A stretch of DNA of 64,000 nt from IMG/VR virus record IMGVR_UViG_3300010383_000113, positions 101,830 through 165,829 of that record. The stretch is one strand, 5' to 3'. Position numbers and translations under genes: made by a program. This document shows positions 5,127 to 56,663 of the stretch, piece after piece; the first letter of the stretch is position 1, and each line of letters starts with the position of its first letter. Source of the stretch: a virus. Lineage: Duplodnaviria > Heunggongvirae > Uroviricota > Caudoviricetes. The notes beneath the pieces are model-generated. The model was not told the DNA's origin. It saw nothing but the letters and a program-made list of their open reading frames with translations, and made no database searches.

Positions 5127-5471
5127 TTACCCTTCGGACTTGAGTTCTTCGACGCATGCCATGACGTCGCCCACCGTGAGGCTCCTCCCGAGGCCCAGGA
5201 CGGCCGCGTAGACCTCCTGGACGCTCAGGCCGCTGCCGGAGTCGGCCACGGCGTGCTTGACGATCCTGCGGACCTTCCAGCGGGCCAGGAGGCCGGGGTC
5301 GCGGCACTGCTCGACGGCCGACGCCGGGTACAACTGCCAGCACTCATAGGCCAGCAGGATGAGCTTCAGGATGGCGACCACCAGGACGACGTCGACCTGC
5401 TTGGGGGAATTCGAACCGCTGTCGGACGGAATCGACGCCAGGACTTGCGAGGCCAATCTTGTGATTGTCAT
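5127..5471 (-). CDS. hypothetical protein
   Basis: 114 aa ORF. Confidence 0.35.
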   Translation of the reverse strand: MTITRLASQVLASIPSDSGSNSPKQVDVVLVVAILKLILLAYECWQLYPASAVEQCRDPGLLARWKVRRIVKHAVADSGSGLSVQEVYAAVLGLGRSLTVGDVMACVEELKSEG

Positions 5472-6388
5472 TCAATCGCCACCTTAGTGCCCGGAATACA
5501 CCAGGACACATTGTCAGGAAAGAAACCACGGCTCAAATCTTTGCGTCTCAACCTAGCCTTGATATCAGGTGCATCTCCAACATCATTGAAAAACGCCATA
5601 ATGTCATCACGCCACGGTTGATGAACATCGATTCCGTTCTCTCGCGATCTCCTGAGCATCCCGTAGTAAGCGTGCCACTCCTTGGTATTCACTTTGTTGT
5701 GATCGGGCTTCAACAACAACGGCGTCGTCAGTGCCTCCTCGTCCGTCCAGCCATTCTTATGGCGGTTCCAGAGCACCTGATACGACACGCCGATTTCTTC
5801 CGCCCATTCCGACGCCGGCAGAGTCCTCCCGTTGTATGAGATGAACCAGGTGAGTTCTCTGTTGTTGGTGTTATCTCTCGGTGTTGACCAGGAGAGATTG
5901 TTCGGCATGCGGTTGGTCCGGCACCACTCGCAATCTCCGCAAGTATAAGATCCCGTATTGTCCCTCCGATCGATCTGATGCCGAGAGTCAGGTCTCGGAC
6001 CTACGACCTCAAGGAACTTGGCGAAGTCGTTTTTAATGCCGTCGCAAACCACCACGGGGATGGGAAGCCTTCCCCCATATCGATGGTAGGCATGGTGGTT
6101 GGGATTGCCACATCGTTCAAGGATCCCGTACCAAACTCCCCACTCCGGAGATTTTTCCTTACGTGTGGCATGTCCGTGTTTGGTATTTCGTCTGATCATC
6201 CTTTCCGACGTCAGGCACCCGCACGATCGAACATTTCCACGACGTAATTCACCGCCGGCCGACACATGCCAGGATTGCTTGGGGCAGGTACATCGACACA
6301 GCCAAACTCGATCGCCGTTCGACGCCCTGCCCCATTCTCTGACAACTTTCAGGCGGCCAAATTCGCGGCCGACCATCTCAATCATCAA
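5468..6388 (-). CDS. HNH homing endonuclease (HNH_3 type) with N-terminal DNA-binding domain
   Basis: HQIDRRDNTGSYTCGDCEWCRTNRMPNNLSWSTPRDNTNN (H-x-D..N..NL..N..N), NTKHGH..W..RC.NPN..Y..YGG; markedly lower GC than flanks. Confidence 0.65.
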   Translation of the reverse strand: MMIEMVGREFGRLKVVREWGRASNGDRVWLCRCTCPKQSWHVSAGGELRRGNVRSCGCLTSERMIRRNTKHGHATRKEKSPEWGVWYGILERCGNPNHHAYHRYGGRLPIPVVVCDGIKNDFAKFLEVVGPRPDSRHQIDRRDNTGSYTCGDCEWCRTNRMPNNLSWSTPRDNTNNRELTWFISYNGRTLPASEWAEEIGVSYQVLWNRHKNGWTDEEALTTPLLLKPDHNKVNTKEWHAYYGMLRRSRENGIDVHQPWRDDIMAFFNDVGDAPDIKARLRRKDLSRGFFPDNVSWCIPGTKVAIE

Positions 6389-6394
6389 GTTGCC

Positions 6395-7369
6395 TCACCA
6401 AAGATCGAAATGCGATCTGTCCAACTTCTGAGCCGGAAACCCATCAAACATACTGTAGACGAAGCTATCGCCCTGCTTGAGCATGGCGTCGATCGTCTCG
6501 GGACGTACCCGCAAGGTGCCCTTCGGCCAGAGGATCGTAGGATCGCGTAGGTCACGCAATTGTCCGTGAACGTCTCCCCAACTATTGAAGACGCACGCAT
6601 GCGGAGGAATGCCGTCGCCTCCGGTGTCGACGCCCAGGATGGCCATCTGATGGTTCCAGGTGCCCTGTGCCCTCATGAAGCCGGAAGAATCGGCGTTCAT
6701 TTGAAATCCGTAGTTGGATGCTACGGAAACGCCGTATCCATTCTTCACGGCGTCACAGCAGGCGTCCCATCCTGGAACAAGCGAAGAACTCTTGACAAGA
6801 TGCTTCTTACCCTCGGTGATGAAATTTGCCGGCGGACCACTGCCTCGGCCCCAGGACCTAGCCAAGGATCCGCTGTAAGGGGGCACGCCCTCACCATCGG
6901 CGGCCAAGGCTCCATACTGCAAGACGCCTCGACTCCCCCAGACGCCGAGCGACCCGTCCGTCAGTCCCAGACGAGTTCCTCCGATCTGGACGCGAGAAAT
7001 GCCGTAGAAGTATGGGGGAAAGGTGTCATGCCATTCGTAAAACTCGCCATTGAGGATCGGCAAGCACTGAGTCGCATTGATGGCGTTACGAATACCCCAA
7101 CTTACGCAGTCACCTATAGCTTGTGCAATGTTCGGCCAGTCTTTGCCACCACTGATCTTTCTGTAGAGTTCCCAGAGCATGACACGGGCGGGCTTCTCAC
7201 CCTGATCGCCCACGATACGGAACGTCGGAAACTCGTCACCCCAGAGATCGAAGGCCTGACGCAGCAGGTCCGGACGCTCCTGGCCGACGTATCCGCACAA
7301 CTCCTGGACCGGGAACGACCCGTGCTCATTGACGATGACGTCGGACATGGAAACGGCTCCCCTGTGCAT
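6395..7369 (-). CDS. papain-like (C1-type) cysteine peptidase-like protein
   Basis: Q..GDCVSWG (Cys), HQMAILGVD (His), NSWG (Asn) in papain order. Confidence 0.5.
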   Translation of the reverse strand: MHRGAVSMSDVIVNEHGSFPVQELCGYVGQERPDLLRQAFDLWGDEFPTFRIVGDQGEKPARVMLWELYRKISGGKDWPNIAQAIGDCVSWGIRNAINATQCLPILNGEFYEWHDTFPPYFYGISRVQIGGTRLGLTDGSLGVWGSRGVLQYGALAADGEGVPPYSGSLARSWGRGSGPPANFITEGKKHLVKSSSLVPGWDACCDAVKNGYGVSVASNYGFQMNADSSGFMRAQGTWNHQMAILGVDTGGDGIPPHACVFNSWGDVHGQLRDLRDPTILWPKGTLRVRPETIDAMLKQGDSFVYSMFDGFPAQKLDRSHFDLW

Positions 7370-7417
7370 AAAGGCGTGATTAGACCATCACACATAAATA
7401 CGCCGGGGAGCCGATCT

Positions 7418-8377
7418 TCACTTCTTGGGGATCGCGGCGAATCCCTTCGCGGCCTCGTCGGCGGCGGCCTTGAAATCCTCGGCCGTCCGACAGGTGCCGT
7501 TCTGGTAAAGGGTATAGAGATACCCGCTCATCGTCGACTTGAGGGTCTCGATCTTGGAGGTCGGCACCCCGCTGGAGGCCAGGTTGTCGTTCGCGAGGGT
7601 CTTGGCCGTCTGCAAGATCGTGTTCACGTCCCGCATCTGCGAGAGGGCCGCGATCTGAGACGAGACGGTCTCGTAGGTGACCTTCAACGCCTGCGAGACC
7701 TTGTATTTCTCCTCGCCGGTCAGGCCCTCATAGGTTTTCATGTAGTCGTAGAGCATCTTGGAGATGCCGTACTTGCCCGGATCGAAGGTCGGCTCGGGAT
7801 CCGGCTTGGGGGTCGGAGGGTCCGGATTCGGCGGCGTCGGCGGGGGCGGATTCGGGACGTCCGGCTCGGGCTTCGCCCCGCCCCCCACCTTGATCGTCTT
7901 GACGGAGATCTCGGGGCTGTCGATCTCGGGGTTGACGAGGGCCGACTTCCCTTCGACGGTCTGCTGGGTGCCGAAAAGGCAGTCGACGTCGAGGAAGACG
8001 TTGTAGGTGGCCGGCTTCATCCCGGCCGCGAAGAACAGCTTGGAGCCGTCCGGCCAGACGATGACGTTGTCCTTGGGCTTGCCGTCCTGGACCACGGTCC
8101 ACTGGAACTTGACCTGGACGAGGCCCTCGGGGAACTTCGTCCGGTCGAGGTTGGCCGACACGACGATCATCTCGCCGGGGTCAACCTCCTCCTGGCTGAC
8201 GATGTCGACGGTGGGCAGCACGTAGGTGGAGCCGCGAAGTTCGACGGCGTCGATGCCCTGGGCCTTGAGGATCCGGGCGGCCTCGGCCTTGGAGCCCTTG
8301 ACCTCCAGGATGGTCTTGGGGGCGTCCTGGAAGCCGACGACGCCGAGGCAGAGGACGAGGCTGAAGATCGAGTTCAT
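7418..8377 (-). CDS. secreted protein with proline-rich linker
   Basis: N-terminal signal peptide MNSIFSLVLCLGVVGF; PNPPPPTPPNPDPPTPKPDPEP linker. Confidence 0.5.
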   Translation of the reverse strand: MNSIFSLVLCLGVVGFQDAPKTILEVKGSKAEAARILKAQGIDAVELRGSTYVLPTVDIVSQEEVDPGEMIVVSANLDRTKFPEGLVQVKFQWTVVQDGKPKDNVIVWPDGSKLFFAAGMKPATYNVFLDVDCLFGTQQTVEGKSALVNPEIDSPEISVKTIKVGGGAKPEPDVPNPPPPTPPNPDPPTPKPDPEPTFDPGKYGISKMLYDYMKTYEGLTGEEKYKVSQALKVTYETVSSQIAALSQMRDVNTILQTAKTLANDNLASSGVPTSKIETLKSTMSGYLYTLYQNGTCRTAEDFKAAADEAAKGFAAIPKK

Positions 8378-8392
8378 GGGGTCCTTTCGGAA

Positions 8393-8764
8393 TTATTCGT
8401 CGGGAGTTTCGCCGTCTTCGCCCACCCCCTGCTCCTCTTCGGCCTCGGCCGTCTGGGGAGCAGCAGGGAGGGCGGGTTCGTCGACGGCCGTTTCGGCGGA
8501 GGCGGGGTCTTCGGTCGACTCAAGCTTGTCGATGTCGGCCTGGATGTCGGCGAGAGAAGGCCCGGGGACGATATCGGTCAGGTCGACCTCCTCGGCGGGG
8601 ACCTCGACCGTCTCGACCAGTAGTTCGTCGGCGTCGGTTTCGGGCGAGGGCACCAGGTTCTCGAAGAAGGTCGGCGGCAGGACGAGGTTGACCTGGCCGG
8701 TGTAGACGGGGGGCGTGTCGAGGACGTTCTCGGGCTTGGCGGGGTCGATGGGCTGGCTGGACAT
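8393..8764 (-). CDS. acidic hypothetical protein
   Basis: 123 aa, highly acidic; C-terminus EEEQGVGEDGETPDE encoded by an inverted pair of GC-motif copies. Confidence 0.45.
   Translation of the reverse strand: MSSQPIDPAKPENVLDTPPVYTGQVNLVLPPTFFENLVPSPETDADELLVETVEVPAEEVDLTDIVPGPSLADIQADIDKLESTEDPASAETAVDEPALPAAPQTAEAEEEQGVGEDGETPDE
8421..8476. repeat. inverted pair of GC-rich motif copies (CCCACCCCCTGCTCC..N19..GGAGCAGCAGGGAGGGCGGG)
   Basis: direct reading; lies inside coding sequence. Confidence 0.6.
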
Positions 8765-9240
8765 CAGCAGAACTCCTGGAATTGTCGGTCGGCTTTCTTC
8801 TTCATCTTGGCCATCGCGGCGTGGTAGACGCCTGCGGCCTCCTCGGGACTCATGGACAGGGCCTCGCCGATCCGCTTGAAGGTCATGTCGTCCCGGAATC
8901 GCATGTCGACGACGGCACGTTCGCGGTCGTCCAGATGGGCCAGGAGCCGGCCCGCCACCTCCTGGGCGTCGAGCCGGGCCTCCAGGTCCTCGAACGGCCG
9001 GGATTCGACCGGCCCCGGCGGGGCCTCCCTGACCTTCCGCATGAGCCGACGCTTCCGGAACTCGGTCCGCTGATGCGTGATCATCATGCGGCGGACGCTG
9101 AAGTACAGCGACGTGACGAATTTCCGGCGGCTGTCGGGCTTGTGGCCGATCAGGGTCTTCATGAGGGCGATGCGTCGGATCTGCTCGCCCTCCTCATGGG
9201 TGATATAGGGCACGAAGGGCAGGCACGCCCTCGCCATCAT
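8764..9240 (-). CDS. ECF-type sigma-70 family sigma factor
   Basis: region 4 LDDRERAVVDMRFRDDMTFKRIGEALSMS; region 2-like IRRIALMKTL..FVTSLYFSVRRMMI. Confidence 0.65.
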   Translation of the reverse strand: MMARACLPFVPYITHEEGEQIRRIALMKTLIGHKPDSRRKFVTSLYFSVRRMMITHQRTEFRKRRLMRKVREAPPGPVESRPFEDLEARLDAQEVAGRLLAHLDDRERAVVDMRFRDDMTFKRIGEALSMSPEEAAGVYHAAMAKMKKKADRQFQEFC

Positions 9241-9298
9241 CTTGACGTTGTTGGGATTCTTCCAAGCGGCCTCGAAAGCCTCGTCCGTGATTCGGGCC

Positions 9299-10883: not shown

Positions 10884-10884
10884 G

Positions 10885-11241: not shown

Positions 11242-11251
11242 GAGAATCCTT

Positions 11252-21802: not shown

Positions 21803-22639
21803 TCATCCGGCCTCCCTGCTCCTCTGCCCTCCCCCTTTGGTCATGAGATGGTGACGGGCCAGGTCGAGGATCGTGATCGCCGCCGACTCCGGGAGGTCGG
21901 GGTGGACGATCTTCACCTCGACCGAGGCCTTGTACGCGGGCGTCTCGACGGGGATGATGAACTTGGAGACCTTGCCCTTCAGGAGGGTGGACTCCTTGGG
22001 GTTCTCGGCCCTGGCGACGCTGTAGGCTTTCGTCAGGCTGATCTTGCCCTCGATGAGCTGCTGCCTGGTCGTCTCGTTCAGCTTCAATATACTCAGCATC
22101 TTCGAGACGTGTCCGGCGGAAATCCCGATTTTCTTGGCGACCTGATCCTGGCTCATGCCGAGCTTGTCCATCATGGCCTTGTAGGCCTCGGCCTGCTCGA
22201 CCGGATTGAGGTCTTCGCGGGTGCAGTTCTCGATGAGCTGGTCGACCAGCAGGTTCCCGTCGTCCAGCTTGCTCGTCTCGATCAGGGCCTCGATCGCCGT
22301 CACGCCCGCCATCCGGCAGGCCTGCCAGCGACGCTCCCCGGCGATGATGACGTAGTGTTCGAGCAGGTCGTCCCACCGGACGCGGATCGCCTGGAGGAGC
22401 CCCCGGTCGCGGATCGTGTCGGCCAGGCGTTCGAGTTCGACCTGGTCGAATTGCTTGCGGGGCTGGTTCGGGTCCGGCTTGATCCGGTCGATCGGGATCA
22501 GGCCCGAGTTCTTGAGCTTCTTGACGCCCTGATGCTGGGCGGACCTGGCGGGGGCCGGCGTGGCGGCTTCGGCCGACGCGGCCTCTTCGAGCCCGGCCCC
22601 CATCGACTCGGCCATATGGTCTTCGTTGAACCTGCTCAT
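21803..22639 (-). CDS. parB: ParB partition protein
   Basis: IIAGERRWQA (ParB GERR box), HTH region; start MSRFNEDHMAESMG near 22639. Confidence 0.75.
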   Translation of the reverse strand: MSRFNEDHMAESMGAGLEEAASAEAATPAPARSAQHQGVKKLKNSGLIPIDRIKPDPNQPRKQFDQVELERLADTIRDRGLLQAIRVRWDDLLEHYVIIAGERRWQACRMAGVTAIEALIETSKLDDGNLLVDQLIENCTREDLNPVEQAEAYKAMMDKLGMSQDQVAKKIGISAGHVSKMLSILKLNETTRQQLIEGKISLTKAYSVARAENPKESTLLKGKVSKFIIPVETPAYKASVEVKIVHPDLPESAAITILDLARHHLMTKGGGQRSREAG

Positions 22640-23439
22640 GCCGCGATCTCCCCGTTTCCGTTCGTGAGGATGCGAAGCTCGATCTCGTTGGCGAGGTCCC
22701 CCACCGCCTCGTGGGCCGCCGACTTCTTCTTGAAGTGGCAGATGGGGGTCCGGCCGACCACGGCCTCCTTGAAGGCCGAGGCGTTGGGGATCGTGGTCAG
22801 CATCACCCGCTGCTTGTACGTGTTCCGGAGGAGTTGGTGGAACTTCTGGTGGACGGCCAGTTGGCGGTTGTATTGCGAGATGAGGTAGCCCAGGAGGGTG
22901 GGAGGGCCGCCCCGGATCTTCTGGGCCTTGGCGATGGCCTGGTTGACCTCGAAGATGCCCTGAGTGCCCAGGTCCTCGGGCTGGAGCGGCACCAGGACCC
23001 AGTCGCTCGCGATCAGGGCCGCGTGGGTCGTGAAGTCGAGCGACGGCCTCGTGTCGATGAGGACGTAGTCGTAGTCGTCGCGGACGTCGTCGAGGAAGTC
23101 CTTCAGCGACTCTTCGCCCTCGTGCCACTCCTCCTCGGCGGTCCGGTCACGCTTGATGACGTCGCGATGGCCGGGCAGCAGGTGGAGGTTGTCGAAGCCG
23201 GTCGGGTGGATCACGGACTCGTCGACGATCTCGTCCGAGTAGACCTGGTCGATCGACCGTTCGCGGGGCAGGGCGTGGAGGCCCTTCGGCCCCCAGAACA
23301 ACTGGGTGAGGCTCGACTGGGAGTCGTTGTCCACGACGAGGACTTTCCGGCCTCGTTGGGCCAGGACGCCCCCCAGGTGGAAGCAGGTGGACGTCTTGCC
23401 GACGCCCCCCTTGAGGTTCGTGACCGCGATGATGGGCAT
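22636..23439 (-). CDS. parA: ParA partition ATPase
   Basis: deviant Walker A KGGVGKTS, VDNDSQ; ATGA-coupled to parB. Confidence 0.8.
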   Translation of the reverse strand: MPIIAVTNLKGGVGKTSTCFHLGGVLAQRGRKVLVVDNDSQSSLTQLFWGPKGLHALPRERSIDQVYSDEIVDESVIHPTGFDNLHLLPGHRDVIKRDRTAEEEWHEGEESLKDFLDDVRDDYDYVLIDTRPSLDFTTHAALIASDWVLVPLQPEDLGTQGIFEVNQAIAKAQKIRGGPPTLLGYLISQYNRQLAVHQKFHQLLRNTYKQRVMLTTIPNASAFKEAVVGRTPICHFKKKSAAHEAVGDLANEIELRILTNGNGEIAA

Positions 23440-34058: not shown

Positions 34059-34586
34059 TCATACGCACGACCCACGAATCTTGCCGAGGATTTTGAGGGA
34101 TTTCTTGTGGTGGTCGTAGACCTGGCGGAATCCATGGCCGCCGACCGTCGCCAGGAAGGGGTAGCAGCAGGCCGACGCGAAGCACGCGACCTGATTGAAC
34201 TCGTCCTCGAATGGGAAGTCGGCCGCCTCTTCCCCGCAACGACTAGCCCTGAAACGCCGCCATGTCCCGACGCTTTCGACGGGCTTGGTGTTCTTCAGGA
34301 TCTCGTCCCAGGTCTTCTCCAGGATGAAAACCGATCGTTCCTGGGGGTGGGTGTCGCCCTTCGCGAACTCGGGCTCGAAGCCTTCGACCCAGCCGTAGTG
34401 GTTGTAGGCCCCCTTGACGATCGCATGGACGAACTCGCTGATGTCGCAGTGGGTCGTGAGGAAGTTGTGGTGCGGATGTCGTGAATCCTCGACGCCCTCC
34501 TCTGTAAGCCAGATCATCACGACCCGGCGGCCCTTGCGGATGGGCTCCTGGGTGAAAGCGTCGGTAGCCTCGAAGCAGCCCATCAA
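34059..34586 (-). CDS. hypothetical protein, paralog pair member
   Basis: MMGCFEATDAFTQEPI..VVMIWLTEEG..YNHYGWVEGFEP parallels the next gene. Confidence 0.45.
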   Translation of the reverse strand: MMGCFEATDAFTQEPIRKGRRVVMIWLTEEGVEDSRHPHHNFLTTHCDISEFVHAIVKGAYNHYGWVEGFEPEFAKGDTHPQERSVFILEKTWDEILKNTKPVESVGTWRRFRASRCGEEAADFPFEDEFNQVACFASACCYPFLATVGGHGFRQVYDHHKKSLKILGKIRGSCV

Positions 34587-35092
34587 AACTCCTCCATTTC
34601 TTTCTCATGATCGTGAAGCCTCTGCTTTCCCCAGGCTCGAAGATCAGAGAGGAGTTCGTACTTATCGACGTCGTCGCCTCCCCAGTATTGAAGACCTTTG
34701 GTGGCCAGTGGTCCCTTGAGATCAATCCTGCATCGGCAAGCGAAATCTAGGACCGTCGCCAGCTCGTTCATAAACTCGATGCCTTTTGGGTCGTTCGCCC
34801 TCACTTCGGTTTTAACGATGGTGTCCCAGACGTGCCGAGCAACGAAGATCGTGTGGCATTGAGGATGAGTGTACTTCTCGTCGGTGTCGTCTGGGTCGTC
34901 AAGATCCTCAAGCCAGCCATAGTCGTCGTACACTCCCTTCTTGATGAATCCCACTGAGTATTTGAGCGAATATGCGTCTCTCAGCATAATGTTGTTCTTG
35001 AGACCGGAGTGTGTCAAAAATATCATAACGACTTCATCGCCCGCGAAAATCGGATGTGTCGTGATGGCATCAGACTCTTGCCAGCAACCCAT
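34583..35092 (-). CDS. hypothetical protein, paralog pair member
   Basis: MGCWQESDAITTHPI..VVMIFLTHSG..YDDYGWLEDLDD. Confidence 0.45.
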   Translation of the reverse strand: MGCWQESDAITTHPIFAGDEVVMIFLTHSGLKNNIMLRDAYSLKYSVGFIKKGVYDDYGWLEDLDDPDDTDEKYTHPQCHTIFVARHVWDTIVKTEVRANDPKGIEFMNELATVLDFACRCRIDLKGPLATKGLQYWGGDDVDKYELLSDLRAWGKQRLHDHEKEMEEF

Positions 35093-44567: not shown

Positions 44568-44893
44568 TTCTCTTTTCCTACCTGTGAGGTGCCCAGCACC
44601 ACCATGCTGGTGCCGTACTCCTCATCCTCGACCTTGGGAGGATTGACGGAGCCCGAGGAACGCAGCACGACCGTCTCACGGGACAGTTTCTTGTCCACGA
44701 TGGTGACGACCTCGAAGAAGGTGTTCGTGCCGGGGTGGCGGTCGACGCCCGAGGTCGTCACCTGGAAACGGCCGGCGTCGAAGGCGAGGGGTGCTGGCGG
44801 GGGTTTCGTCTCGCAGCCACAAATCACTAATATCGCGACGCCGAGAAGTTTCAAGCGTCCTTCAGAAATCTTCGTCTTCGTCGATGAATTCAA
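44564..44893 (-). CDS. lipoprotein
   Basis: LGVAILVICGCETK lipobox. Confidence 0.4.
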   Translation of the reverse strand: MNSSTKTKISEGRLKLLGVAILVICGCETKPPPAPLAFDAGRFQVTTSGVDRHPGTNTFFEVVTIVDKKLSRETVVLRSSGSVNPPKVEDEEYGTSMVVLGTSQVGKEK

Positions 44894-45140
44894 AGAGGGG
44901 CTCCTCGCTGTCGGCCAGGGCTTCGTTCAGGGCCTCGCAGGCTCGGTTGAGTTGATCGTACCTGTCAGCTTCGGGGAGATGGTGATTTTCGCTGACATAG
45001 GACGAACGGACGATTTCCCCCGTTCTTTCGAACTTCACTTCGACACTTCCATAAATCACCGTCAGTACGCCGACTTTCTCCCTGTCTAGGAAGAACTCAT
45101 AATGGTCGGAGTCCTTTTGCCTAACCTTTAGTTTCTGCAC
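44862..45140 (-). CDS. hypothetical protein
   Basis: GTG start with GGAG 9 nt upstream; motif in leader. Confidence 0.35.
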   Translation of the reverse strand: MQKLKVRQKDSDHYEFFLDREKVGVLTVIYGSVEVKFERTGEIVRSSYVSENHHLPEADRYDQLNRACEALNEALADSEEPLFEFIDEDEDF

Positions 45141-45179
45141 GATCGGATCTCCAGGGGTGAAGGGGAGGAGCAGGGAGGG

Positions 45180-45710
45180 TCAGTCATCGAGTCCGTGCCA
45201 ACGCACGAAGTTGTCGATGAGGCCACGATAGAACTTAGGATAACGGTGGGCGAAGGCGTCCTCGATCAGGCAGAGGCCGAGGATGAGGTTCAGGGGCAGT
45301 CGCACGATCAGTGTGGCGACGGCGGTGAGGCCTTTGAGCATCGGGAGGATCGGCCGAGCGAAGAAGAGGACGCAGTAGTCTCGTCGTTCGGACTCGATCT
45401 TGACCCGGAGCCAGCCAATGAACTCGTGGTCGGTCAGATCCGGCGAGGGGTACGTCAACTTCCGAGACCGGCCGACGATCTTGCCCATCTGGACTTCGTT
45501 GAAGTAACTCTGGCAGATCCCACAGACGACCACGTAGAAGGTGCAGAGAAGGATCCCAAGGGCGAACAGACCGTTCATCGAATCTCCAAACAGGGCTGAG
45601 AGGGAGGGGGTTTGAGCAACGTCCGATTTCGTGAAAATCATTATCAGCGTGGGACGAGGGCTCGAACCCCCAGAAACCCTGGAAAACAAGCCCCCTGCCC
45701 GTGCATCCAC
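45180..45710 (-). CDS. membrane protein
   Basis: several hydrophobic segments (LFALGILLCTFYVVVCGI, LTAVATLIVRLPLNLILGLCLI). Confidence 0.4.
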   Translation of the reverse strand: MDARAGGLFSRVSGGSSPRPTLIMIFTKSDVAQTPSLSALFGDSMNGLFALGILLCTFYVVVCGICQSYFNEVQMGKIVGRSRKLTYPSPDLTDHEFIGWLRVKIESERRDYCVLFFARPILPMLKGLTAVATLIVRLPLNLILGLCLIEDAFAHRYPKFYRGLIDNFVRWHGLDD

Positions 45711-45778: not shown

Positions 45779-46506
45779 TCAGGTGACGTTTGTGCGGCGT
45801 TTGTTCTCTACGATGAGTTTGATCGCCGCCGGGGAAACGCCGTATACTCGGGCGATTTCGGCCTTCCGACGGCCGTCCTGATAGAGTTTGCGAATTCCAC
45901 GTACGTCATCGTCCGAGAGTTTCTTCCTCGGTTGACCCTGAGCTTTAGGATTGGGCGTAGGACTGTAGTGAATGCCCGTGAGGCTGCTCCAGGATCTTCC
46001 TTTGATGATCGCGTTGATGGTGGTCGGGTCAACGCCAAAGAGAGCGGCGATTTGCTCCTGCGAAAGGCCCTCGTCTTTGTAGAGCCTGATGATTTCCAGG
46101 ACTTTATCAGGGTCGAGTTTTGCGTGGGGGTGGTGACCACCGGGTTGGAGGTAGTTGGTGCCGTGCTCGACCTGATCCTGGTAGTTCTCGGCCGGGCTAC
46201 CGTATTTGAGGTTGTCCAGTCTGTTGTTGGATGGATCCCCGTCGAGGTGCCGGATGAGCATCCCATCCGGTCTAGGCCCAACGTAAGTCAGGAGTACGAG
46301 TTCGTGGACGAAGAAGAAGTTCTTCCTCCCGAGTTCCACCCCGCGATGCCCCCTGTACTGGACGCTCTGCTTAAGCTGCTTCCAAGGCCCGGTGACGATA
46401 TGGTCTTTTCGTTTGTAGTGAAGGTTTGACCAAACGGTGCCGTCGTTGCCAACTCGGTAGTTGCTATAGCCGGGAACAAGGCGATACTCAACTCGAAATT
46501 CCACCG
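45779..46506 (-). CDS. HNH homing endonuclease (NUMOD4 + HNH_3 + C-terminal HTH repeats)
   Basis: YRVGNDGTVWS, HLDGDPSNNRLDNLKYGSPAEN; GTG start with AAGGAG; lower GC than flanks. Confidence 0.65.
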
Positions 46507-46680
46507 GCAGACGTCTCCTTGATGTTGAAGTGCATGGCCTGGGTGATGATCGGACCTTCGCAGTAGACCGAAAGGTCGATGGCGACCTTGACGGCGGCCT
46601 TGGGGTCGTGGCCGAGGTGCATGGCGGCCGTGGCGAAGTCGCAGCCGGCCCCGATGGCGTCGTACGCCAGGATCTCGTCA
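46507..46680 (-). pseudogene. C-terminal fragment of an HslV/proteasome-beta-like (Ntn hydrolase) gene
   Basis: NHCDGYYVDEILAYDAIGAGCDFATAAMHLGHDPKAAVKVAIDLSVYCEGPII aligns with the HslV C-terminus; N-terminal 100+ residues absent, in-frame stop upstream. Confidence 0.3.
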
Positions 46681-46795
46681 ACGTAGTAGCCGTCGCAGTG
46701 GTTTCAAAAGCTTCTTCGAAGCTTAACGGATGGGATCGGTAGGGAGTTTGAGGTGATACTCAAGTGATGGAACAACTCGGCCGGGAGGTCGACCT

Positions 46796-47041
46796 TCAAC
46801 TGTCTTGCCCCTCCCTGCTCCTCTTTCTCCACGACTCCTCCAGGTATTGGGTCAGAAGTTCACACTCCAGCATGGTCATCGTCGACCACTCCGAGTACAT
46901 GCCGTCCTTGACTTCAGCGTAACGTGCCGGGAGGCCCATTCTGACGGCCTCACAGTAATCTTCATAGGACGCGGCTTTGTGGACCCTGAGAGACGCCCTG
47001 CCCTCCAGGATCATCCTGGCGATAGCCCGCAAGTCAGACAT
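46796..47041 (-). CDS. hypothetical protein
   Basis: start MSDLRAIARM. Confidence 0.35.
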   Translation of the reverse strand: MSDLRAIARMILEGRASLRVHKAASYEDYCEAVRMGLPARYAEVKDGMYSEWSTMTMLECELLTQYLEESWRKRSREGQDS

Positions 47042-47305: not shown

Positions 47306-47536
47306 TCAGATGTCGTAGTGTTCTTTCAGCAGCAGCGTGAGTTCTTCGGGATCCACGATCACGGCCTTGTCCTTCCAGGCCAGGCACTTGTCACGCTCGA
47401 TCACGGCGTCTTCATAGGACGGGAAGGTGTAGATGTGGCGGACGTCGTCCTCCGAGGATCCCGCGATGACGATCCAGCAGTTCAGGGTGATGGTCTCGCG
47501 GACTTTCTCGTACTCGTCACAGCCTCGCAGGGCCAT
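47306..47536 (-). CDS. hypothetical protein
   Basis: start MALRGCDEYEK. Confidence 0.35.
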   Translation of the reverse strand: MALRGCDEYEKVRETITLNCWIVIAGSSEDDVRHIYTFPSYEDAVIERDKCLAWKDKAVIVDPEELTLLLKEHYDI

Positions 47537-47793
47537 CAAGAATTCTCCGGAGTAGCAGGGAGGGAAGGGTGATATTCCTTTGTCCTGTCTGGCAGGTCTG
47601 TGTATATAAGAGCCGCATAGACAGAGCCTTGAGTGCCCTGGCGAACATGCTTCCAATATGGACCCTCGGCTACAACCCAGATGTACTCAACGTCCGCCGG
47701 GATTAGGTCCCTGCAATAGTTTGTGTCCGGCAAGGTAAGCACTGGAATGTCAGGACCAAGAAGTAATTTGCGAGCGAGTTCATGTGTGGTCAT
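47536..47793 (-). CDS. hypothetical protein
   Basis: ends PATPENS within a repeated 30-nt junction sequence. Confidence 0.4.
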   Translation of the reverse strand: MTTHELARKLLLGPDIPVLTLPDTNYCRDLIPADVEYIWVVAEGPYWKHVRQGTQGSVYAALIYTDLPDRTKEYHPSLPATPENS

Positions 47794-48401
47794 CAGGAAT
47801 TCTCCGGACTGGCGGGGAGGATGATCGAGGTACGCTTAGTGCCCGGAAACCAAGACAGGGGATCTTTGCGGGCTTCACGACCTCGGATCACCTGGTTGAG
47901 GCTTTCGATGGCCTGGTAGATGTCGGGGGCGGCCTCAGAGAGACTGTGACCCTCGGGCAGGAAGTCGCAGGCCCAGTCGTCCGGATCGATCTCGCGGCCG
48001 TATTCGGGCTCGCAGACGACGAGGTCAAGGTCGGCCGGGTCCAAGTCCTGATCTTCGCAGTAGTCGTAGACGTCATCTTCATCGAAGAAGTAGCGGTCGC
48101 CGCTGTAGAGAGTCAGCGGCGTTTCACCGTCCCACTCGACGAATTCAAGGCCTTGGTAGGCCAGCCGATCCTTTGCGGCTCGGCACTTCTCGCAGGACAT
48201 CCAGCCATGCTTCTTAACGAAGGCCCCACACTCGCACTGCCGATGGGTCGAGCCGTCGTAGCGGGCCGCACGCTCATCGGCCCCGTAGAAATGGCCTTCT
48301 CGCGAAACCCAGCCGGTGACGGTCTGGAGTTTGGCGGCCTCGTCGGATTCGGGCAGGACTACCAGTTCGTCCTTCTTGGTCTCAGGCATCGTCGGCCTCA
48401 T
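47793..48401 (-). CDS. hypothetical acidic protein
   Basis: ends PASPENS, same junction sequence as previous gene. Confidence 0.4.
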   Translation of the reverse strand: MRPTMPETKKDELVVLPESDEAAKLQTVTGWVSREGHFYGADERAARYDGSTHRQCECGAFVKKHGWMSCEKCRAAKDRLAYQGLEFVEWDGETPLTLYSGDRYFFDEDDVYDYCEDQDLDPADLDLVVCEPEYGREIDPDDWACDFLPEGHSLSEAAPDIYQAIESLNQVIRGREARKDPLSWFPGTKRTSIILPASPENS

Positions 48402-49883: not shown

Positions 49884-50285
49884 TTAGTCATAGGGCAACA
49901 ATACGGCGTCTTCCAAAGGCCCGACCATGATGATCGGGGACAGCGGGATGATGTATTGGTAGTGGTCAAACCAGCCCTTATGTGGCGGATACATGATCTT
50001 TGCGTGATGTGCCGCACGCTCTCTGGCCTCTTCGATCGAGTTTGCCGCGTCCAGAAGATGACCGTGCGTAATGTGCAGTGAGACAGTTCCGTCTTTCAGG
50101 CGATAACGACGAGCCGTATGCACGACGGCAAAAGCTTGCGATGCTCGAACGGCTTTGATGCCTGTCGCGATAACTTCTGGCTGAGTATCTGGAACTACGA
50201 AGATCTCCTCTCTTGGTGCCTCCTCCAGTTCGCTCTTAGCAAACAGACTCAGGACGCGATTCCAGAGACATCTGAGGTGTTCCAT
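49884..50285 (-). CDS. hypothetical protein in locally lower-GC segment
   Basis: 133 aa; LHITHGH; AT-richer than surroundings. Confidence 0.4.
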   Translation of the reverse strand: MEHLRCLWNRVLSLFAKSELEEAPREEIFVVPDTQPEVIATGIKAVRASQAFAVVHTARRYRLKDGTVSLHITHGHLLDAANSIEEARERAAHHAKIMYPPHKGWFDHYQYIIPLSPIIMVGPLEDAVLLPYD

Positions 50286-50286
50286 C

Positions 50287-50553
50287 TCAGTCCTTCTTGG
50301 CGGCCTCGTCGGCCTTCTTCTGGTTCTGTTCGATGGCGATCTGGGCGTCGACGAAGTAGCCGACTCGGGCCATGTCGTTCATGGCTTTGAGTTTGGGCAG
50401 GGCTTCCGGGTTCTGGATGATCCAGGCCGATCGTGCCTCCCAGTACGAGTTGTGCGTGTCGCAGGCGAAAGGGACCGTCGCGAACAATCCGGCGACAGAG
50501 AAAAGCAAACAGCCGAAGCCAAACTGGATAAAGCCTTCGAGGATGTCGCTCAC
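50287..50553 (-). CDS. small membrane protein
   Basis: TM FGFGCLLFSVAGLFATV. Confidence 0.4.
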   Translation of the reverse strand: MSDILEGFIQFGFGCLLFSVAGLFATVPFACDTHNSYWEARSAWIIQNPEALPKLKAMNDMARVGYFVDAQIAIEQNQKKADEAAKKD

Positions 50554-50798
50554 TTCAGTCCCTCGATCTTGAGCTTGGCATCAATGTAGGTGGACCTGTC
50601 TTCGAAGCTGCTGAGTTGTTTGATGGCTGAAACTTCGTCGAGATGGGTCAAGACGTATTCCAGGCGAGCACTCTCTTCGGCGGCGTACGATTTACCGTTC
50701 ATGATGACGGTAAACCAGCAGACGACGAACATCACCATCAGCAAGAAGATCATAAGCGGGCCCGTGTAATCATCATTCGACTGCGGCTGTGTCTGCAT
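50550..50798 (-). CDS. small membrane protein
   Basis: TM LMIFLLMVMFVVCWFTVIM. Confidence 0.4.
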   Translation of the reverse strand: MQTQPQSNDDYTGPLMIFLLMVMFVVCWFTVIMNGKSYAAEESARLEYVLTHLDEVSAIKQLSSFEDRSTYIDAKLKIEGLK

Positions 50799-50924: not shown

Positions 50925-50926
50925 CC

Positions 50927-52140: not shown

Positions 52141-52190
52141 TGATTCGCACGCGAGGTTCCTTTCGTGGTGGTGGAGGGCCGTGTTGGACT

Positions 52191-52220
52191 TTGCCCTCCC
52201 TGCTACGTGGCCGAAGGCCA
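52191..52220. repeat. motif-hairpin module TGCCCTCCCTGCTAC + GTGGCCgaaGGCCAC (intergenic)
   Basis: direct reading, immediately after the TAA of the 52224 gene. Confidence 0.6.
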
Positions 52221-52223
52221 CTC

Positions 52224-52499
52224 TTACTCAATGACGACCATGTCTTGTTCACCGAGGATCACGATACGCCTGACGATCTTGTAGATGAAGTCGGCGTTCT
52301 TGTTGGTCGCCACCCAGAGCTTGGCCTGGTCCAGGGACGCGGCGATCACCGGCTGTCCGCCCTCGATCGGGGCACGCCAGAAGCCGTTGGACAAGCTGAC
52401 CGAGTCGCCGATCTTGGTACGCAGGACGTGAAACTCTTCCCTAGCCTCAAGACCCTGGAGGTCGTCGAAGATTGTCTCGTCGAAGTTTTGATAGATCAT
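52224..52499 (-). CDS. hypothetical protein
   Basis: 91 aa ORF. Confidence 0.4.
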   Translation of the reverse strand: MIYQNFDETIFDDLQGLEAREEFHVLRTKIGDSVSLSNGFWRAPIEGGQPVIAASLDQAKLWVATNKNADFIYKIVRRIVILGEQDMVVIE

Positions 52500-52861
52500 C
52501 GATCCTCATTCTCGCGAAGAAAGTTTAGGGCGGACCTTACACTCTGCTCAAACCCTGGCTTCGAGGTGATTTGCCGTAAGGATGCGGCGAGACCACTTCT
52601 GTCGGATGGGTAATCGATGATTCGTGGATCAGCCAGGCTGTGCGGCAGAGCATTCGATTCTGGATGATCGGTTATAGTGCCGACACGTACTTGCTCGCCG
52701 ACTTCCAGCTTGAGCATGTCGAGCATGATGAAACGCTCGATTGGAATCCCATCGAAGTCGTCGTCGGCCAGGCCGCACTCCTCATCATTCAGTAGGATGA
52801 CGAAGCACTTGGATCCGCGAACGTCGGCGATACGCTTCAGATAGATGTGGCCGTAGTTCAC
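52496..52861 (-). CDS. hypothetical protein
   Basis: 121 aa ORF. Confidence 0.4.
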   Translation of the reverse strand: MNYGHIYLKRIADVRGSKCFVILLNDEECGLADDDFDGIPIERFIMLDMLKLEVGEQVRVGTITDHPESNALPHSLADPRIIDYPSDRSGLAASLRQITSKPGFEQSVRSALNFLRENEDR

Positions 52862-53076
52862 GGACGCTCCTTCTCGATTTCGGCGTCGATGTAGCGACGC
52901 ACCGCGTCGTAGTCTCGGAGCTGGAGCACATGAGCACCGGCCTCGGGATGGGCGGCCAGCCAGTTGATTCGTGTGTGGTGTTGGTTAGTGCCGCCAATCA
53001 TCAGAAGCATCACGATCAGGGACGCCACCACGCAGATCAAGATTCCGGCCAGCGAGAGAAGGTCTAGGTCTTTCAT
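52858..53076 (-). CDS. small membrane protein (paralog of 51923..52140)
   Basis: start MKDLDLLSLAGILICVV. Confidence 0.4.
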   Translation of the reverse strand: MKDLDLLSLAGILICVVASLIVMLLMIGGTNQHHTRINWLAAHPEAGAHVLQLRDYDAVRRYIDAEIEKERP

Positions 53077-53111
53077 GGGGTCTCCTAGGTGAGAATGTGG
53101 GAGCAGTGAGG

Positions 53112-53568
53112 TCATCCCTTGTCGTCCTGGTTGAAATACTCATAGGACAGGTGTTCGGCCCGGGGGACGCGGATGGCGTTCACGCGGTCGCACATAGGGC
53201 TGTTCGCGAGCATTGTGCATCGGAAGTCGAGAGAGTCCGGCTTCGCGTTATGTACGAACGGGTGACAGCACAATGAACAGCTCGCGGGAACCATGATCTC
53301 GCTCCAGGCAATGTCGTCCGGGTCGATGAGGTCGCCGTCTTGATACTTGGGAGGTCCGATCCCATCTTCGACGAAGGGGATGATAACGCTCCATGACATC
53401 GGGGCGGCCCCATAGACCTTGTCGGGATTCTGGGTGTGGAGCGACTCGGCCGCCGCACGAGCCTCCTTCCAGGTCATGTGGCGAGACACCACGTCCAGAC
53501 AGTCCGCTCGCTGGACCAGGACGAAGTATCGAGGCTTGTTGTAGAGATCATCAACATCAACCATCACG
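53112..53568 (-). CDS. hypothetical protein with Cys-rich C-terminus
   Basis: probable start MVDVDDLYNK; SCSLCCHPF. Confidence 0.4.
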
Positions 53569-53585
53569 TAGTCTCCCACAAAGAA

Positions 53586-53634
53586 GAGGAGCAGGGAGGG
53601 CACGTCTCCACCCCCTGCTCCCCGACGAAGTCGG
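53586..53634. repeat. near-perfect inverted motif pair GGAGCAGGGAGGG-8nt-CCACCCCCTGCTCC plus hairpin CCGACgaaGTCGG
   Basis: direct reading; 12-13 bp potential stem. Confidence 0.65.
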
Positions 53635-53826
53635 TCAGCTTTTGACGCCCCTGTGAAGATCACGGCACTTCTCTGAGCAGTAGTGCAGCCATCTTCCCTT
53701 TCGGCTCCGCTCGTAGATCAGGGTTCCTTCATCGACCATCTTACGTCGAGCCGTGCAACCATCTACGAGTTCGTTGAATATCTCCCTGGAACATCGATCG
53801 CAGATGGCCTTCCATCCTTTGGTCAT
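53635..53826 (-). CDS. zinc-ribbon mini-protein
   Basis: CDRC...CSEKC. Confidence 0.35.
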   Translation of the reverse strand: MTKGWKAICDRCSREIFNELVDGCTARRKMVDEGTLIYERSRKGRWLHYCSEKCRDLHRGVKS

Positions 53827-54293
53827 TCATCCGCCCTCATCAGATTGATGCTGCGGTCGTTGTTGATCATGATCCGGAAGATGTCGCCGACTTGCGGGAG
53901 GTGGTCGAAGAAGACCCTGTCGGCGTGTTCTCGCAGGATCATGGTCCGGCCGTCCTTCAGGCCGCGAACTTCTACGACGACATCATAGGACCGGGCCTCG
54001 TGCTGCTTGTAATTGCCGTACTTGTAGACGTCGGTTTCGCCCAGGGCTCGAACAACTTCGACCAGGCCGTCGTTGCTCTTGGCATAGCCCTGAAGATTTG
54101 TCAGGACGGCCTGTTTCTTCAGGTGGTCGTTAACGGCCATGTAGCCGAACACAGTCAGAATCAGGAACAACGGGAGGAGTAAACCTCCCATCATCGTCCA
54201 GAAAAAGATCTGGGCGTCTTTGTCGGCGTCGGAGACGCCTCCCTTGGTGGTTCTGGTCGCATTCGAGATCGCCACCATCGCTGGTAGGTTCAA
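53823..54293 (-). CDS. membrane protein
   Basis: TM MMGGLLLPLFLILTVFGYM. Confidence 0.4.
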   Translation of the reverse strand: MNLPAMVAISNATRTTKGGVSDADKDAQIFFWTMMGGLLLPLFLILTVFGYMAVNDHLKKQAVLTNLQGYAKSNDGLVEVVRALGETDVYKYGNYKQHEARSYDVVVEVRGLKDGRTMILREHADRVFFDHLPQVGDIFRIMINNDRSINLMRADE

Positions 54294-56080
54294 GACTGGG
54301 CCCTCCTGCGGATCTCGGCGAAGGTCTCGTCGATCAGCAGGCGGCCATCGCGAAAGACTTCACGCATCTGGTCGTCCGGCTCGTTGATCGAGGCACAACG
54401 ATCCACCAGGCGGTAGTCGCCGTTCTCGTCGAGGACCACCTTAGTATATCCACGAGCTGATTTCTTGGTGCCGGAATCGGTCGCGGGATCCTTGAAGATC
54501 TCGCGGAACTCGCCGTTGACGATGCCGGCCGTGGACTTCACAGCGAAGCCGAAGGTGTCCCGAGTGACCATCTGATAGGTGTTGTGGGATAGGTAGCCGT
54601 TCGTGATGAACGTGCCACACGAGGTCTGAATGCCTGCGATCGGTTGTTTCCCGACGGGGTTGATCGAGGTGATCGTCGCCAGTTGGTAGGTCCTCCCTCT
54701 GGCCAGAGCGGGCATCTCTGCGGTAATCGCGTCGATCTTCTCCAGTAGTCGTTCGGGTCGTACCTGGCCGAGGAAGCGGAGTGTTTCTACCCATCCCCCC
54801 GTAAGGATGACGTGTTCGCACTTACGGTCAAGACGGTAGTACGTGAATTCTCGATCGTCGAGTCGGGCTTTGATTCGTTCCAGTGTGGGCGTTTGGTTTT
54901 GGGAGATGCTTACCTTCCATGACGGAATTCGATCCCCGGTGTTGCAGACACCAAGTCCTCCTTCGCCGTCGAACATGCCCGCAAGCCACCCGCCTTCGCG
55001 GGTATTGTCTGTTTCCCAGGGGTCGCATAGGTAGGCGATCTGATCGCCCACTTCGAGTTCGTAGGTTCGTTTCCAAACCAGGCCGGGATTTCGAGGGAAG
55101 TCCTTCGATGATTGGGCTTTGTTTGGGTCGAAGAAGACGTTGTTCTTACGGCGGCTTGGTGCGTAGACCAGCCAGGGATGGTCGTCGCTGGCGGTGATGT
55201 CTGGTCCGATATCGGTTGAGATCTGGGTCGAGAGTTTCGTGCCTGGATTGTTGTACTCGATGGTAGCCTTGCGGAATCGACGAGTGGCATGACGACCATT
55301 GTCGAAATTCGGATCCTCGTCGAACGCGATGATTTCCTGCCCGACTTTCAAATCACCGGCACGTCGCCAGATCAAATCGGCACACAAAATGAGAGTTTCG
55401 GGATGGACGCAATAGGAACCGACCCCAAACGTGATGTTCGAGGATGCGAACCCCTTTGCTTTCAGGCCCTCCAGGATGGCCTTGGCACGCTCCAGGGTGA
55501 TCGAGTCCCCATAAATCGTCCCGATGTGGCTGTCGAGGACTTTGTAGCCCTTGGAGTTGATGGTCCCGCCGAACGTCTGCCATAGCACGTCCAGGGTTCC
55601 CATCTCGGCGGGCTCGGGAATGGCGACATTCCAGTCAGAGATCCAAACCCGGGTCGCGACGCCCTGCTGGGCCTCGTACGAGCAGGTAAGGTCCCAGTAG
55701 ACGACCAGACCATCCTTGTCCACGCGAATGCGGTCGACGTACTTATGAGGCCGTCCGCCGACATGCAAGACCTCCTCGTTGATCTTGAACTTGGCTACAT
55801 CGCCGTGTTCCTGTATCGCTTGCTCGATCGACGAGTAGGTCCGGACTGGCTTTCCGCAGATCACTTCGACTGGACTGCCAGAATCTGGTCTCACTACAGT
55901 CTTCCCGTCGCGGGACATGATGACTTTCTTGAGACGTGGAAGGCTGTCTGATAGCACAGACCAGTAGTCGAATGAGTCAGACACCAGCGATACGATCCCC
56001 TTGGGATAAACGTTGGTGATCATGTGCTTGATGAAGGCGGTTTCAGACAGCAGTCGGTAGTTCGTCTCGAAACTCGTCAT
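54290..56080 (-). CDS. nicotinamide phosphoribosyltransferase-family protein, C-terminal half, interrupted by an intein
   Basis: LVSDSFDYW and RPDSGSP (NAMPT motifs) then GVGSY|CVHPETL...TASDDHPW...LAGMFDGEGGLG...ITNGYLSHN|T (intein blocks A, B, LAGLIDADG, terminal HN). Confidence 0.7.
   Translation of the reverse strand: MTSFETNYRLLSETAFIKHMITNVYPKGIVSLVSDSFDYWSVLSDSLPRLKKVIMSRDGKTVVRPDSGSPVEVICGKPVRTYSSIEQAIQEHGDVAKFKINEEVLHVGGRPHKYVDRIRVDKDGLVVYWDLTCSYEAQQGVATRVWISDWNVAIPEPAEMGTLDVLWQTFGGTINSKGYKVLDSHIGTIYGDSITLERAKAILEGLKAKGFASSNITFGVGSYCVHPETLILCADLIWRRAGDLKVGQEIIAFDEDPNFDNGRHATRRFRKATIEYNNPGTKLSTQISTDIGPDITASDDHPWLVYAPSRRKNNVFFDPNKAQSSKDFPRNPGLVWKRTYELEVGDQIAYLCDPWETDNTREGGWLAGMFDGEGGLGVCNTGDRIPSWKVSISQNQTPTLERIKARLDDREFTYYRLDRKCEHVILTGGWVETLRFLGQVRPERLLEKIDAITAEMPALARGRTYQLATITSINPVGKQPIAGIQTSCGTFITNGYLSHNTYQMVTRDTFGFAVKSTAGIVNGEFREIFKDPATDSGTKKSARGYTKVVLDENGDYRLVDRCASINEPDDQMREVFRDGRLLIDETFAEIRRRAQS
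54580..55410 (-). mobile_element. intein (about 277 aa) with LAGLIDADG homing-endonuclease-like domain inside the NAMPT C-half
   Basis: N-terminal Cys, TxxH block B, LAGMFDGEGG, C-terminal SHN followed by Thr; lower GC; coordinates approximate. Confidence 0.6.
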
Positions 56081-56663
56081 AGTACATCCAGATTAGTGGC
56101 TCGTTGGTTTCCGGGTGTTTGCCCGCAGATCTACATCCGTAGAGCTTACGACAAACCCGAGTCAAGTTGCCGCTGTCGATTCCGTATTTCTGAGCGGCTA
56201 ATCTAGCAGATTCAAAAACATCGCCTGTGTTCAATAGGACAACAGGCGTTGACTTGGGATTTTCCTTGCCTGTGCGTTTGCCCTTGTGGGCCTTGGATAG
56301 CTTCTCGCTGCGTTCCACGGTCGATTTCAGGAGATTGTTGTCCCATGCGTGTTGAATGTTCTCAGCGTGGGTCATCCACTCCAGGTTGCCGTGGTGGTTG
56401 TCGAGTTTGTTTCCGGACTTGTGGTTCACCTCCGGCTTATCGTCCGGATTTGGAACGAACAGGATCGCTACTAGCCGATGAATCCGAAGCGTTTTGCGTC
56501 GACCGTCGTCGCCTCGAAGAGTGATGACCGGATAGCCGTCCTCGTTGATTTGAACGGGAAGGTGCGATTCAGACTTTGTGTCGCACACTTCGCCGGAGTC
56601 GGATATCCGGTAGCGGCCGAACCCCTCATAGGTCTTCCAGGTTGATTCCGTTCCACGATCCAT
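56043..56663 (-). CDS. HNH homing endonuclease (NUMOD4 + HNH_3) inserted between NAMPT halves
   Basis: YEGFGRYRISDSGEVCD, EVNHKSGNKLDNHHGNLEWMTHAEN; about 50% GC; overlaps both NAMPT half-ORFs by about 37 nt. Confidence 0.7.
   Translation of the reverse strand: MDRGTESTWKTYEGFGRYRISDSGEVCDTKSESHLPVQINEDGYPVITLRGDDGRRKTLRIHRLVAILFVPNPDDKPEVNHKSGNKLDNHHGNLEWMTHAENIQHAWDNNLLKSTVERSEKLSKAHKGKRTGKENPKSTPVVLLNTGDVFESARLAAQKYGIDSGNLTRVCRKLYGCRSAGKHPETNEPLIWMYYDEFRDELPTAV

Follow-up and report, generated by a model that had tools for sequence, protein, structure and literature searches.

The 64,000-nt stretch analyzed here, which we call the window, covers positions 101,830 to 165,829 of IMG/VR virus record IMGVR_UViG_3300010383_000113 (Caudoviricetes), has a GC content of about 60.4%, and carries nearly all of its genes on the minus strand. 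An earlier note on this DNA had focused on three HNH endonuclease genes (here HNH1, HNH2 and HNH3) and on an HslV-like pseudogene beside HNH2. That headline is ordinary; the notable part is a NAMPT-family gene split by HNH3, in an arrangement that recurs in other metagenomic lineages, and bearing an intein in addition. The features of this locus are:

56626..57456, minus strand: N-terminal ORF (open reading frame) of the NAMPT-family gene (N-piece), 276 aa, with Pfam NAMPT_N and NAPRTase domains; ends 38 nt inside HNH3.
56043..56663, minus strand: HNH3, 206 aa, a free-standing homing endonuclease gene of I-HmuI-like type (NUMOD4 plus HNH_3), inside the NAMPT-family gene.
54290..56080, minus strand: C-terminal ORF of the NAMPT-family gene (C-piece), 596 aa including the intein, NAPRTase match at 7e-23; it begins (ATG) 38 nt before HNH3 ends.
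54581..55411, minus strand: intein, 277 aa, with the LAGLIDADG-like motif LAGMFDGEG, inserted in the GVGSY/TYQ motif of the C-piece.

The N-terminal ORF, HNH3 and the C-terminal ORF occupy three different reading frames, with a 38-nt overlap at each junction. HNH3 matches Pfam NUMOD4 and HNH_3 (2.2e-8, 34.0 bits, against a gathering cut-off of 24.8 bits for HNH_3), and its residues 9-170 align with residues 3-155 of I-HmuI (PDB 1u3e, E = 1.2e-16). I-HmuI is an HNH nicking endonuclease encoded by an intron of Bacillus phage SPO1 and has the same order of NUMOD4, HNH and C-terminal DNA-binding parts. In contrast to I-HmuI, the putative endonuclease HNH3 is free-standing, has no intron and resides in a different target gene.

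The two NAMPT ORFs add up to one complete protein. In alignments with intact phage NAMPTs, the N-terminal ORF covers residues 1 to ~262. When the pieces were joined and the 277-aa insert was removed in silico, the product aligned end to end and in one piece with intact phage NAMPTs (99% coverage, 2e-146). The joined and spliced protein also matched NCBIfam NF006629 with 537.5 bits (cut-off 405) over model positions 4-462 of 465, and the PDB NAMPT 9w5x at 1.8e-140, with the break between chain residues 251 and 257; the full-length matches to NF006629 and 9w5x hold only after both ORF joining and intein removal. The break region varies in length among NAMPT homologues, and the insertion point of HNH3 is a variable surface-loop region.

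Both pieces are well conserved. Among 142 unsplit genes, 85 alignment columns had a residue shared by at least 95% of the sequences. The window keeps 84 of them (of the 85 columns, 35 fall in the N-piece and the other 50 in the C-piece), compared with 83-85 in the other split genes described below and a median of 85 (minimum 73) in the unsplit genes. There are no frameshifts or stops, and the GC content at third codon positions (GC3) of the N-piece is 0.83. This is strong evidence that both pieces remain under purifying selection, which implies that they work together.

The same order of N-terminal ORF, HNH gene and C-terminal ORF was found in four other metagenomic lineages (L100, L255, L256-258 and L259-260), three of which have an ATGA overlap at the junction of the HNH gene and the C-terminal ORF. 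The HNH proteins of the five lineages share 41-58% identity, versus at most 39% for homologues from cultured phages. The closest HNH3 homologues (46-58% identity) whose genomic context was read were all in the split-NAMPT position. Other evaluable NAMPT loci were contiguous in 148 of 150 cases (69 of 71 in one set and 79 of 79 in the other), so that five occupied lineages stand against 148 contiguous loci for the presence or absence of the HNH gene at this fixed site. The split genes share a conserved N-piece tail (G-x-W-N-G-x-K-L-E-D-L, then the stop codon) and a conserved C-piece head (M-T-...-A-E-x-A-F); the unsplit gene of L142 has a similar loop in contiguous form. In a neighbor-joining (NJ) distance tree, the five HNH-split genes were interspersed among unsplit ones, and their monophyly was recovered in 0 of 100 bootstraps. 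Since the split genes are not monophyletic, repeated site-specific invasion fits the data.

In one further metagenomic NAMPT gene (L148, Ga0307992_1004295, 1840..4012), an insert of 2.2 kb splits the same loop. It contains two small ORFs and, in opposite orientation to the NAMPT gene, a SegE-like GIY-YIG endonuclease gene of 417 aa. Because this insert carries a GIY-YIG gene, a second endonuclease family has hit this loop.

The intein forms one uninterrupted unit, 223 codons downstream of the NAMPT break. It starts with Cys1 and ends with His-Asn, followed by Thr at position +1 (GVGSY/C...SHN/TYQ), and its removal restores the GVGSY TYQ motif present in all homologues, as expected of a class 1 intein. 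From Cys1 to HN/T it aligns with an insert in the portal protein (gp8) of Gordonia phage Minos (44% identity), while the flanks are unrelated; the boundaries thus coincide in unrelated host proteins. More generally, its homology to actinobacteriophage inteins (Minos gp8 portal and terminases of cluster C mycobacteriophages; 41-44% identity, E = 4e-48) spans the entire element, with identical boundaries (Cys1...SHN/T), and it differs from them in that its host is a NAMPT-family enzyme. Members of this intein family were identified in 164 phage records, in portal or terminase genes and never in a NAMPT gene, and none was present in the other NAMPT loci (the 71-locus set, the 79-locus set and three further split lineages). 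The intein also has a match (3.6e-7) to the part of NCBIfam NF038136 that represents an intein, far under the whole-protein cut-off, and its LAGMFDGEG motif was recognized by eye.

The neighborhood of the split gene suggests a role in nicotinamide adenine dinucleotide (NAD+) metabolism:

58365..59657, minus strand: candidate Adps gene of PRPS-like type; the split NAMPT-family gene lies three genes downstream.

The PRPS-like protein matches phrog_619 at 2e-80 and TIGR01251 with 130.7 bits (cut-off 113). It is 430 aa long and has an N-terminal extension of ~140 aa without a match in Pfam, PHROGs or NCBIfam. NARP1 is a phage NAD+ reconstitution pathway composed of Adps and Namat, the latter marked by a preference for ADPR-PP over PRPP; its neighborhood criterion is a distance of at most ten genes between a NAMPT-family gene and a PRPS-like gene of the Adps type (bioRxiv 10.1101/2024.02.11.579819). 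By this criterion, the PRPS-like gene of the window, only three genes away, and the split NAMPT-family gene most likely represent a candidate Adps/Namat module of the NARP1 type. In contrast to NARP1, the NAMPT-family gene of the window is in two pieces and contains an intein.

To our knowledge, splitting by a free-standing homing endonuclease gene that spares the function of the host gene has been described for a few phage genes only (nrdA, DNA polymerase, topoisomerase). The nrdA/mobE locus of Aeromonas phage Aeh1 is reportedly treated under the name "genes in pieces" by Friedrich et al. in 2007. There, as in the window, an HNH gene splits a metabolic enzyme gene into two ORFs that are translated separately (in the window, probably so), the break involves neither an intron nor an intein, and the halves are conserved. 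The window differs in that the host gene belongs to the NAMPT family (Namat/NadV) and not to ribonucleotide reductase (RNR), in that at least five divergent lineages are affected, in the intein in the same gene, and in that assembly of the NAMPT pieces is proposed by analogy. As outlined in PMC3045599, Aeh1 nrdA is split by the free-standing HNH gene mobE, and the split NAMPT-family gene adds to these known genes in pieces. In "fractured genes" (PMC2677866), a homing endonuclease gene with split-intein halves at its flanks divides the host gene. As in the window, an endonuclease gene separates two ORFs, but the N-piece tail (~11 aa past the end of homology) and the C-piece head (~8 aa) of the window are far too short for split-intein halves, which argues against a split intein, and the intein that is present is contiguous. 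Our literature search for a split or intein-bearing NAMPT/nadV gene retrieved no paper.

A lineage of I-HmuI-like free-standing homing endonuclease genes occupies one fixed site in phage NAMPT-family (Namat/NadV) genes next to a PRPS-like gene. Insertion has produced three overlapping ORFs (N-piece, endonuclease and C-piece) without an intron or a split intein. We propose that the NAMPT pieces would be translated separately, the C-piece probably by coupling to termination of the endonuclease ORF, and the intein would splice itself out of the C-piece. By analogy with Aeh1 NrdA, the pieces may then associate non-covalently into an active enzyme, while the endonuclease would spread when two phages infect the same cell, by a cut or nick in the allele that is still uninterrupted.

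The locus to which the earlier note had given its attention consists of HNH2 and the HslV-like remnant:

45779..46504, minus strand: HNH2, 241-aa HNH_3 endonuclease with two C-terminal helix-turn-helix (HTH) domains.
46488..46703, minus strand: 3' remnant of an HslV/BPH-like Ntn-hydrolase gene, 71 codons plus stop, about the last third of a ~165-aa protein.
46704..46706 and 46708..46724, minus strand: in-frame TGA and 17-nt palindrome at the 5' edge of the remaining homology.

HNH2 starts with GTG at 46504, with AAGGAG 9 nt upstream; the interval 45779..46506 given for it previously is out of frame. It matches Pfam HNH_3 (4.5e-11, 42.6 bits), HTH_38 and HTH_23 (both ~1e-9) and phrog_59 (3e-36), has a GC3 of 0.67, and shares only 26% identity with HNH3.

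The remnant (open frame 46491..46703, stop 46488..46490) had been interpreted as the C-terminal part of an HslV/proteasome-beta-like gene without its N-terminus, and this interpretation holds. It matches phrog_1040 ("peptidase HslV family") at 6e-12, and 167 proteins at E of 1e-3 or lower among the 1.84 billion searched. The best full-length relatives (162-173 aa, beginning MSVVA or MTVIA) are 60-65% identical to it over their residues ~109-160, and a hidden Markov model (HMM) from 13 full-length relatives aligns the remnant to profile positions 108-161 with an E-value of 6e-27. Direct sequence searches, as the earlier note had suggested, succeeded in part: the remnant matches 50L of Xanthomonas phage Xp10 at 1e-5 (tblastn against 2.3 Gb), but no BLAST hit was obtained with E. 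coli HslV. The label is nevertheless justified, because the profile of the full-length relatives matches BPH (PDB 5ovs) at 8.6e-7 and HslV structures at 1e-3 to 5e-3.

Homology ends abruptly on the 5' side, where the HMM alignment stops at the in-frame TGA. Profile positions 1-107 had no match in the six-frame translation of the 64-kb window (best E = 15), and tblastn with E. coli HslV and three phage proteins did not find an N-terminal piece there. The remnant lacks the N-terminal Thr/Ser nucleophile and two thirds of the fold, and is thus not a complete ~165-aa protein. What is left is free of decay, with 13 of 13 invariant C-terminal columns kept, so the truncation may be recent. Its GC3 of 0.86 is ~2 standard deviations (SD) above that of local genes (0.73 +/- 0.06), with a sampling error of ~0.05 for 71 codons. 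The gene would have lost ~107 N-terminal codons including the catalytic N-terminal Ser/Thr, and for this reason we regard what remains as a dead pseudogene, or at most as a leftover 44-aa ORF, and as an ordinary pseudogene of little importance. L084 and L086, considered as further truncated copies, were rejected, as they are full-length genes of a more distant subfamily.

The palindrome AAGCTTCTTCGAAGCTT, which had been singled out as a feature, lies at 46708..46724, two bases from the position previously given for it. Hairpins with 7-bp stems and 3-nt loops occur 5 times in the window compared with 4.6 +/- 2.3 times in shuffled sequences, and the palindrome is therefore no commoner than expected by chance; it was also checked as a terminator, and no terminator-like site was found.

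Several minor observations concern the same locus. The HNH2 frame remains open for 59 codons further upstream, to a TTG (45779..46681, minus strand), out of frame over the HslV-like remnant, and this extension translates into a Pro/Ser/Thr/Arg-rich sequence. The public gene call starts HNH2 internally (186 aa) and represents the remnant by a 44-aa ORF only, which makes the automatic annotation of this locus unreliable. The motif GAGGAGCAGGGAGGG (15-18 nt) is found in both orientations around the locus, at 45165..45182, 46806..46823 and 47550..47564, with arms that are 94% complementary and 1.6 kb apart. A 33-nt direct repeat (85% identical; 47531..47563 and 47788..47820) marks the 3' ends of two successive minus-strand genes, whose products both end in ...P(T/S)PENS and whose stop codons are overlapped by the ATG of the following gene; the repeat may mark a boundary of recombination, or the junction may have been duplicated.

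The remaining endonuclease gene lies apart from the others, between two intact genes:

5468..6388, minus strand: HNH1, 306-aa Cys-rich putative homing endonuclease.

HNH1 matches phrog_374 (1.4e-43) and phrog_3377 (5e-41), both named "HNH endonuclease", and has homologues in 583 phage records, often with 2-4 copies per genome. Searches of Pfam (E of 0.01 or lower), NCBIfam and PDB gave no match. Since only PHROG families match, HNH1 has no HNH_3 domain above the Pfam gathering score and cannot be assigned to HNH_3. All three ORFs proposed as HNH_3 genes therefore exist, those of HNH1 and HNH3 exactly at the coordinates proposed, but only HNH2 and HNH3 belong to that Pfam family. Sequence similarity supports the classification of all three as putative endonuclease genes of the HNH type, belonging to kinds known for mobile, homing behavior.

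The idea that all three are 8-12% poorer in GC than their surroundings fits HNH1 only. Relative to ten neighboring genes, and with ranks counted from the lowest GC among 94 genes, the deficit is 10.7 points for HNH1 (0.533 versus 0.640, rank 8), 2.2 points for HNH2 (0.555 versus 0.577, rank 21) and 4.9 points for HNH3 (0.528 versus 0.577, rank 5). The minus-strand ORFans at 34583..35092, 50550..50798, 44862..45140 and 49884..50285 have GC contents of 0.51-0.53, as low as or below those of the HNH genes, and showed no match to an endonuclease or any other family when checked as further endonuclease genes. Given the rank of HNH2 and these ORFans, low GC is a weak and non-specific marker in this window.

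Together, we consider it likely that the window derives from a large phage colonized by several selfish endonuclease elements, in which HNH3 has produced a gene in pieces, an intein has entered the same gene, HNH1 and HNH2 are ordinary intergenic endonuclease genes, and an HslV-like gene was truncated separately. Several points weigh against parts of this explanation. The ATG of the C-piece in the window is not preceded by a clear Shine-Dalgarno sequence, and it overlaps HNH3 by 38 nt, compared with 4 nt in relatives. The tree distances behind repeated invasion are saturated, and there may instead have been one old insertion that was precisely lost several times. The intein was not assigned to any Pfam family at E of 0.01 or lower, and Pfam did not find a Proteasome domain in the full-length HslV-like relatives, a family that it leaves unrecognized. 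The N-terminal HslV-like piece could be located elsewhere, because ~107 kb of the source contig are outside the window, and the remnant could still be in use, given its perfect conservation and high GC3. With respect to the NAMPT-family gene, the missing Shine-Dalgarno sequence would also be expected if the gene were simply broken, with both ORFs as non-functional leftovers after the arrival of the endonuclease gene and the intein, and a NARP1-type module is accessory rather than essential (bioRxiv 10.1101/2024.02.11.579819). We nevertheless consider simple breakage very unlikely, because conservation of 84 of 85 near-invariant residues in intact frames would not survive neutral decay, and because four further lineages, with mutual identities of just ~50-60%, show the same conservation. 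It is extremely improbable that a self-splicing intron (group I or another type) contains HNH3 as its ORF and leaves a single full-length NAMPT mRNA and protein. The closest solved relative of HNH3, I-HmuI, is intron-encoded, but no Rfam family matched the HNH3 region at the gathering threshold, and no intron family even at E of 10 or lower; moreover, the insert of ~570-600 nt is essentially ORF only, leaving no room for a ~200-nt ribozyme core, and the N-piece stop and the C-piece ATG are conserved in five lineages.

For the HslV-like gene, the 5' loss is most likely due to an independent event on the upstream side, either a deletion or a replacement. The earlier note had suspected disruption associated with the adjoining endonuclease gene. 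HNH2 does adjoin the remnant, and in fact overlaps its 3' end by 17 nt, with its ribosome-binding site inside it, but the contact is with the intact 3' end, whereas the break is ~190 bp away on the opposite side. This geometry, and the fact that no related genome was found, leave an endonuclease-caused disruption unproven. It is possible, though doubtful, that HNH2 activity or insertion disrupted the gene, for example by faulty break repair that deleted its 5' two thirds. Free-standing homing endonucleases such as those encoded by the T4 mob and seg genes usually cut a neighboring gene, and in Xp10 an HNH gene (49L) likewise overlaps the 3' end of an HslV-family gene (50L). Comparison of Xp10 (L001, 1213..2168) with phage NR08 (L003, 1210..2098), where the peptidase gene is followed by an unrelated ORF instead, makes the two phages a presence/absence pair for an HNH gene at that position. 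However, 50L is full length (144 aa) despite its HNH neighbor, and 49L belongs to a different HNH family without BLAST similarity to HNH2. In addition, no HslV-like neighbors were found for the closest HNH2 homologues, none of 99 loci with intact HslV-like genes was syntenic with the window or had a directly adjacent similar HNH gene, and a relative with the before-and-after state was not found. We consider it unlikely that the remnant was never resident and that HNH2 arrived by recombination with the last ~200 bp of a donor's HslV-like gene as flank. The high GC3 of the remnant, the expression signals of HNH2 embedded in it and the lack of any other piece of the gene in the window would fit such an import, but a single imported block would not be expected to combine a GC3 of 0.86 with one of 0.67 in HNH2, the GC3 difference from local genes is subject to the sampling error given above, and HNH2 relatives are unlinked to HslV-like genes. 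Judged by its sequence, the demonstrable endonuclease-associated gene interruption of this window is instead the one at HNH3, which had been overlooked.

The significance of a split by HNH3 lies in the host gene. A NAMPT-family gene, most likely the Namat of a NAD+ reconstitution counter-defence, joins the genes split by homing endonuclease genes. Its loop has been hit in at least five lineages, and also by a GIY-YIG gene, and in the window a second parasite, the intein, occupies an active-site motif. The split point would mark a natural permissive split site in NAMPT-family enzymes, and surveys of phage NAD+ pathways that rely on single full-length genes would misread such loci as fragments. 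A more far-reaching view, which we regard as quite unlikely, is that the two-piece Namat/NAMPT is not just tolerated damage but a stable, horizontally spreading form of the counter-defence. In this view, assembly is mediated by the tail and head sequences linked to the endonuclease, enzyme production is tied to endonuclease expression by translational coupling, and the selfish gene acts as a built-in regulator or addiction device of NAD+ reconstitution.

No close relative of the phage was found in any collection scanned. With blastn, the 44-49 kb region showed no DNA similarity to any of 50,697 phage records. IMG/VR scans with the product of 47793..48401 and with the NAMPT N-piece found no close relative, and in an exact-protein look-up neither the C-piece nor the 44-aa ORF was on record. 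A metagenome scan with the NAMPT alignment yielded, among the matches listed, relatives of at most 47% identity, and in genome and IMG/VR scans with the HslV-like remnant, the best matches reached 64-67% identity over 33 residues, without synteny. Two proteins encoded in the window are recorded from one JGI contig of 171,667 bp. No tRNAs or Rfam families were found in the window. Its nucleotide-metabolism genes are of phage type and comprise, in addition to the PRPS-like gene, those for the RNR large subunit, dCMP deaminase and thymidylate synthase. The window also contains a gene for a ParA-like partition ATPase (22636..23439, minus strand; phrog_164 at 3e-53); for a large phage, this is a possible sign of pseudolysogeny or of a plasmid-like lifestyle.

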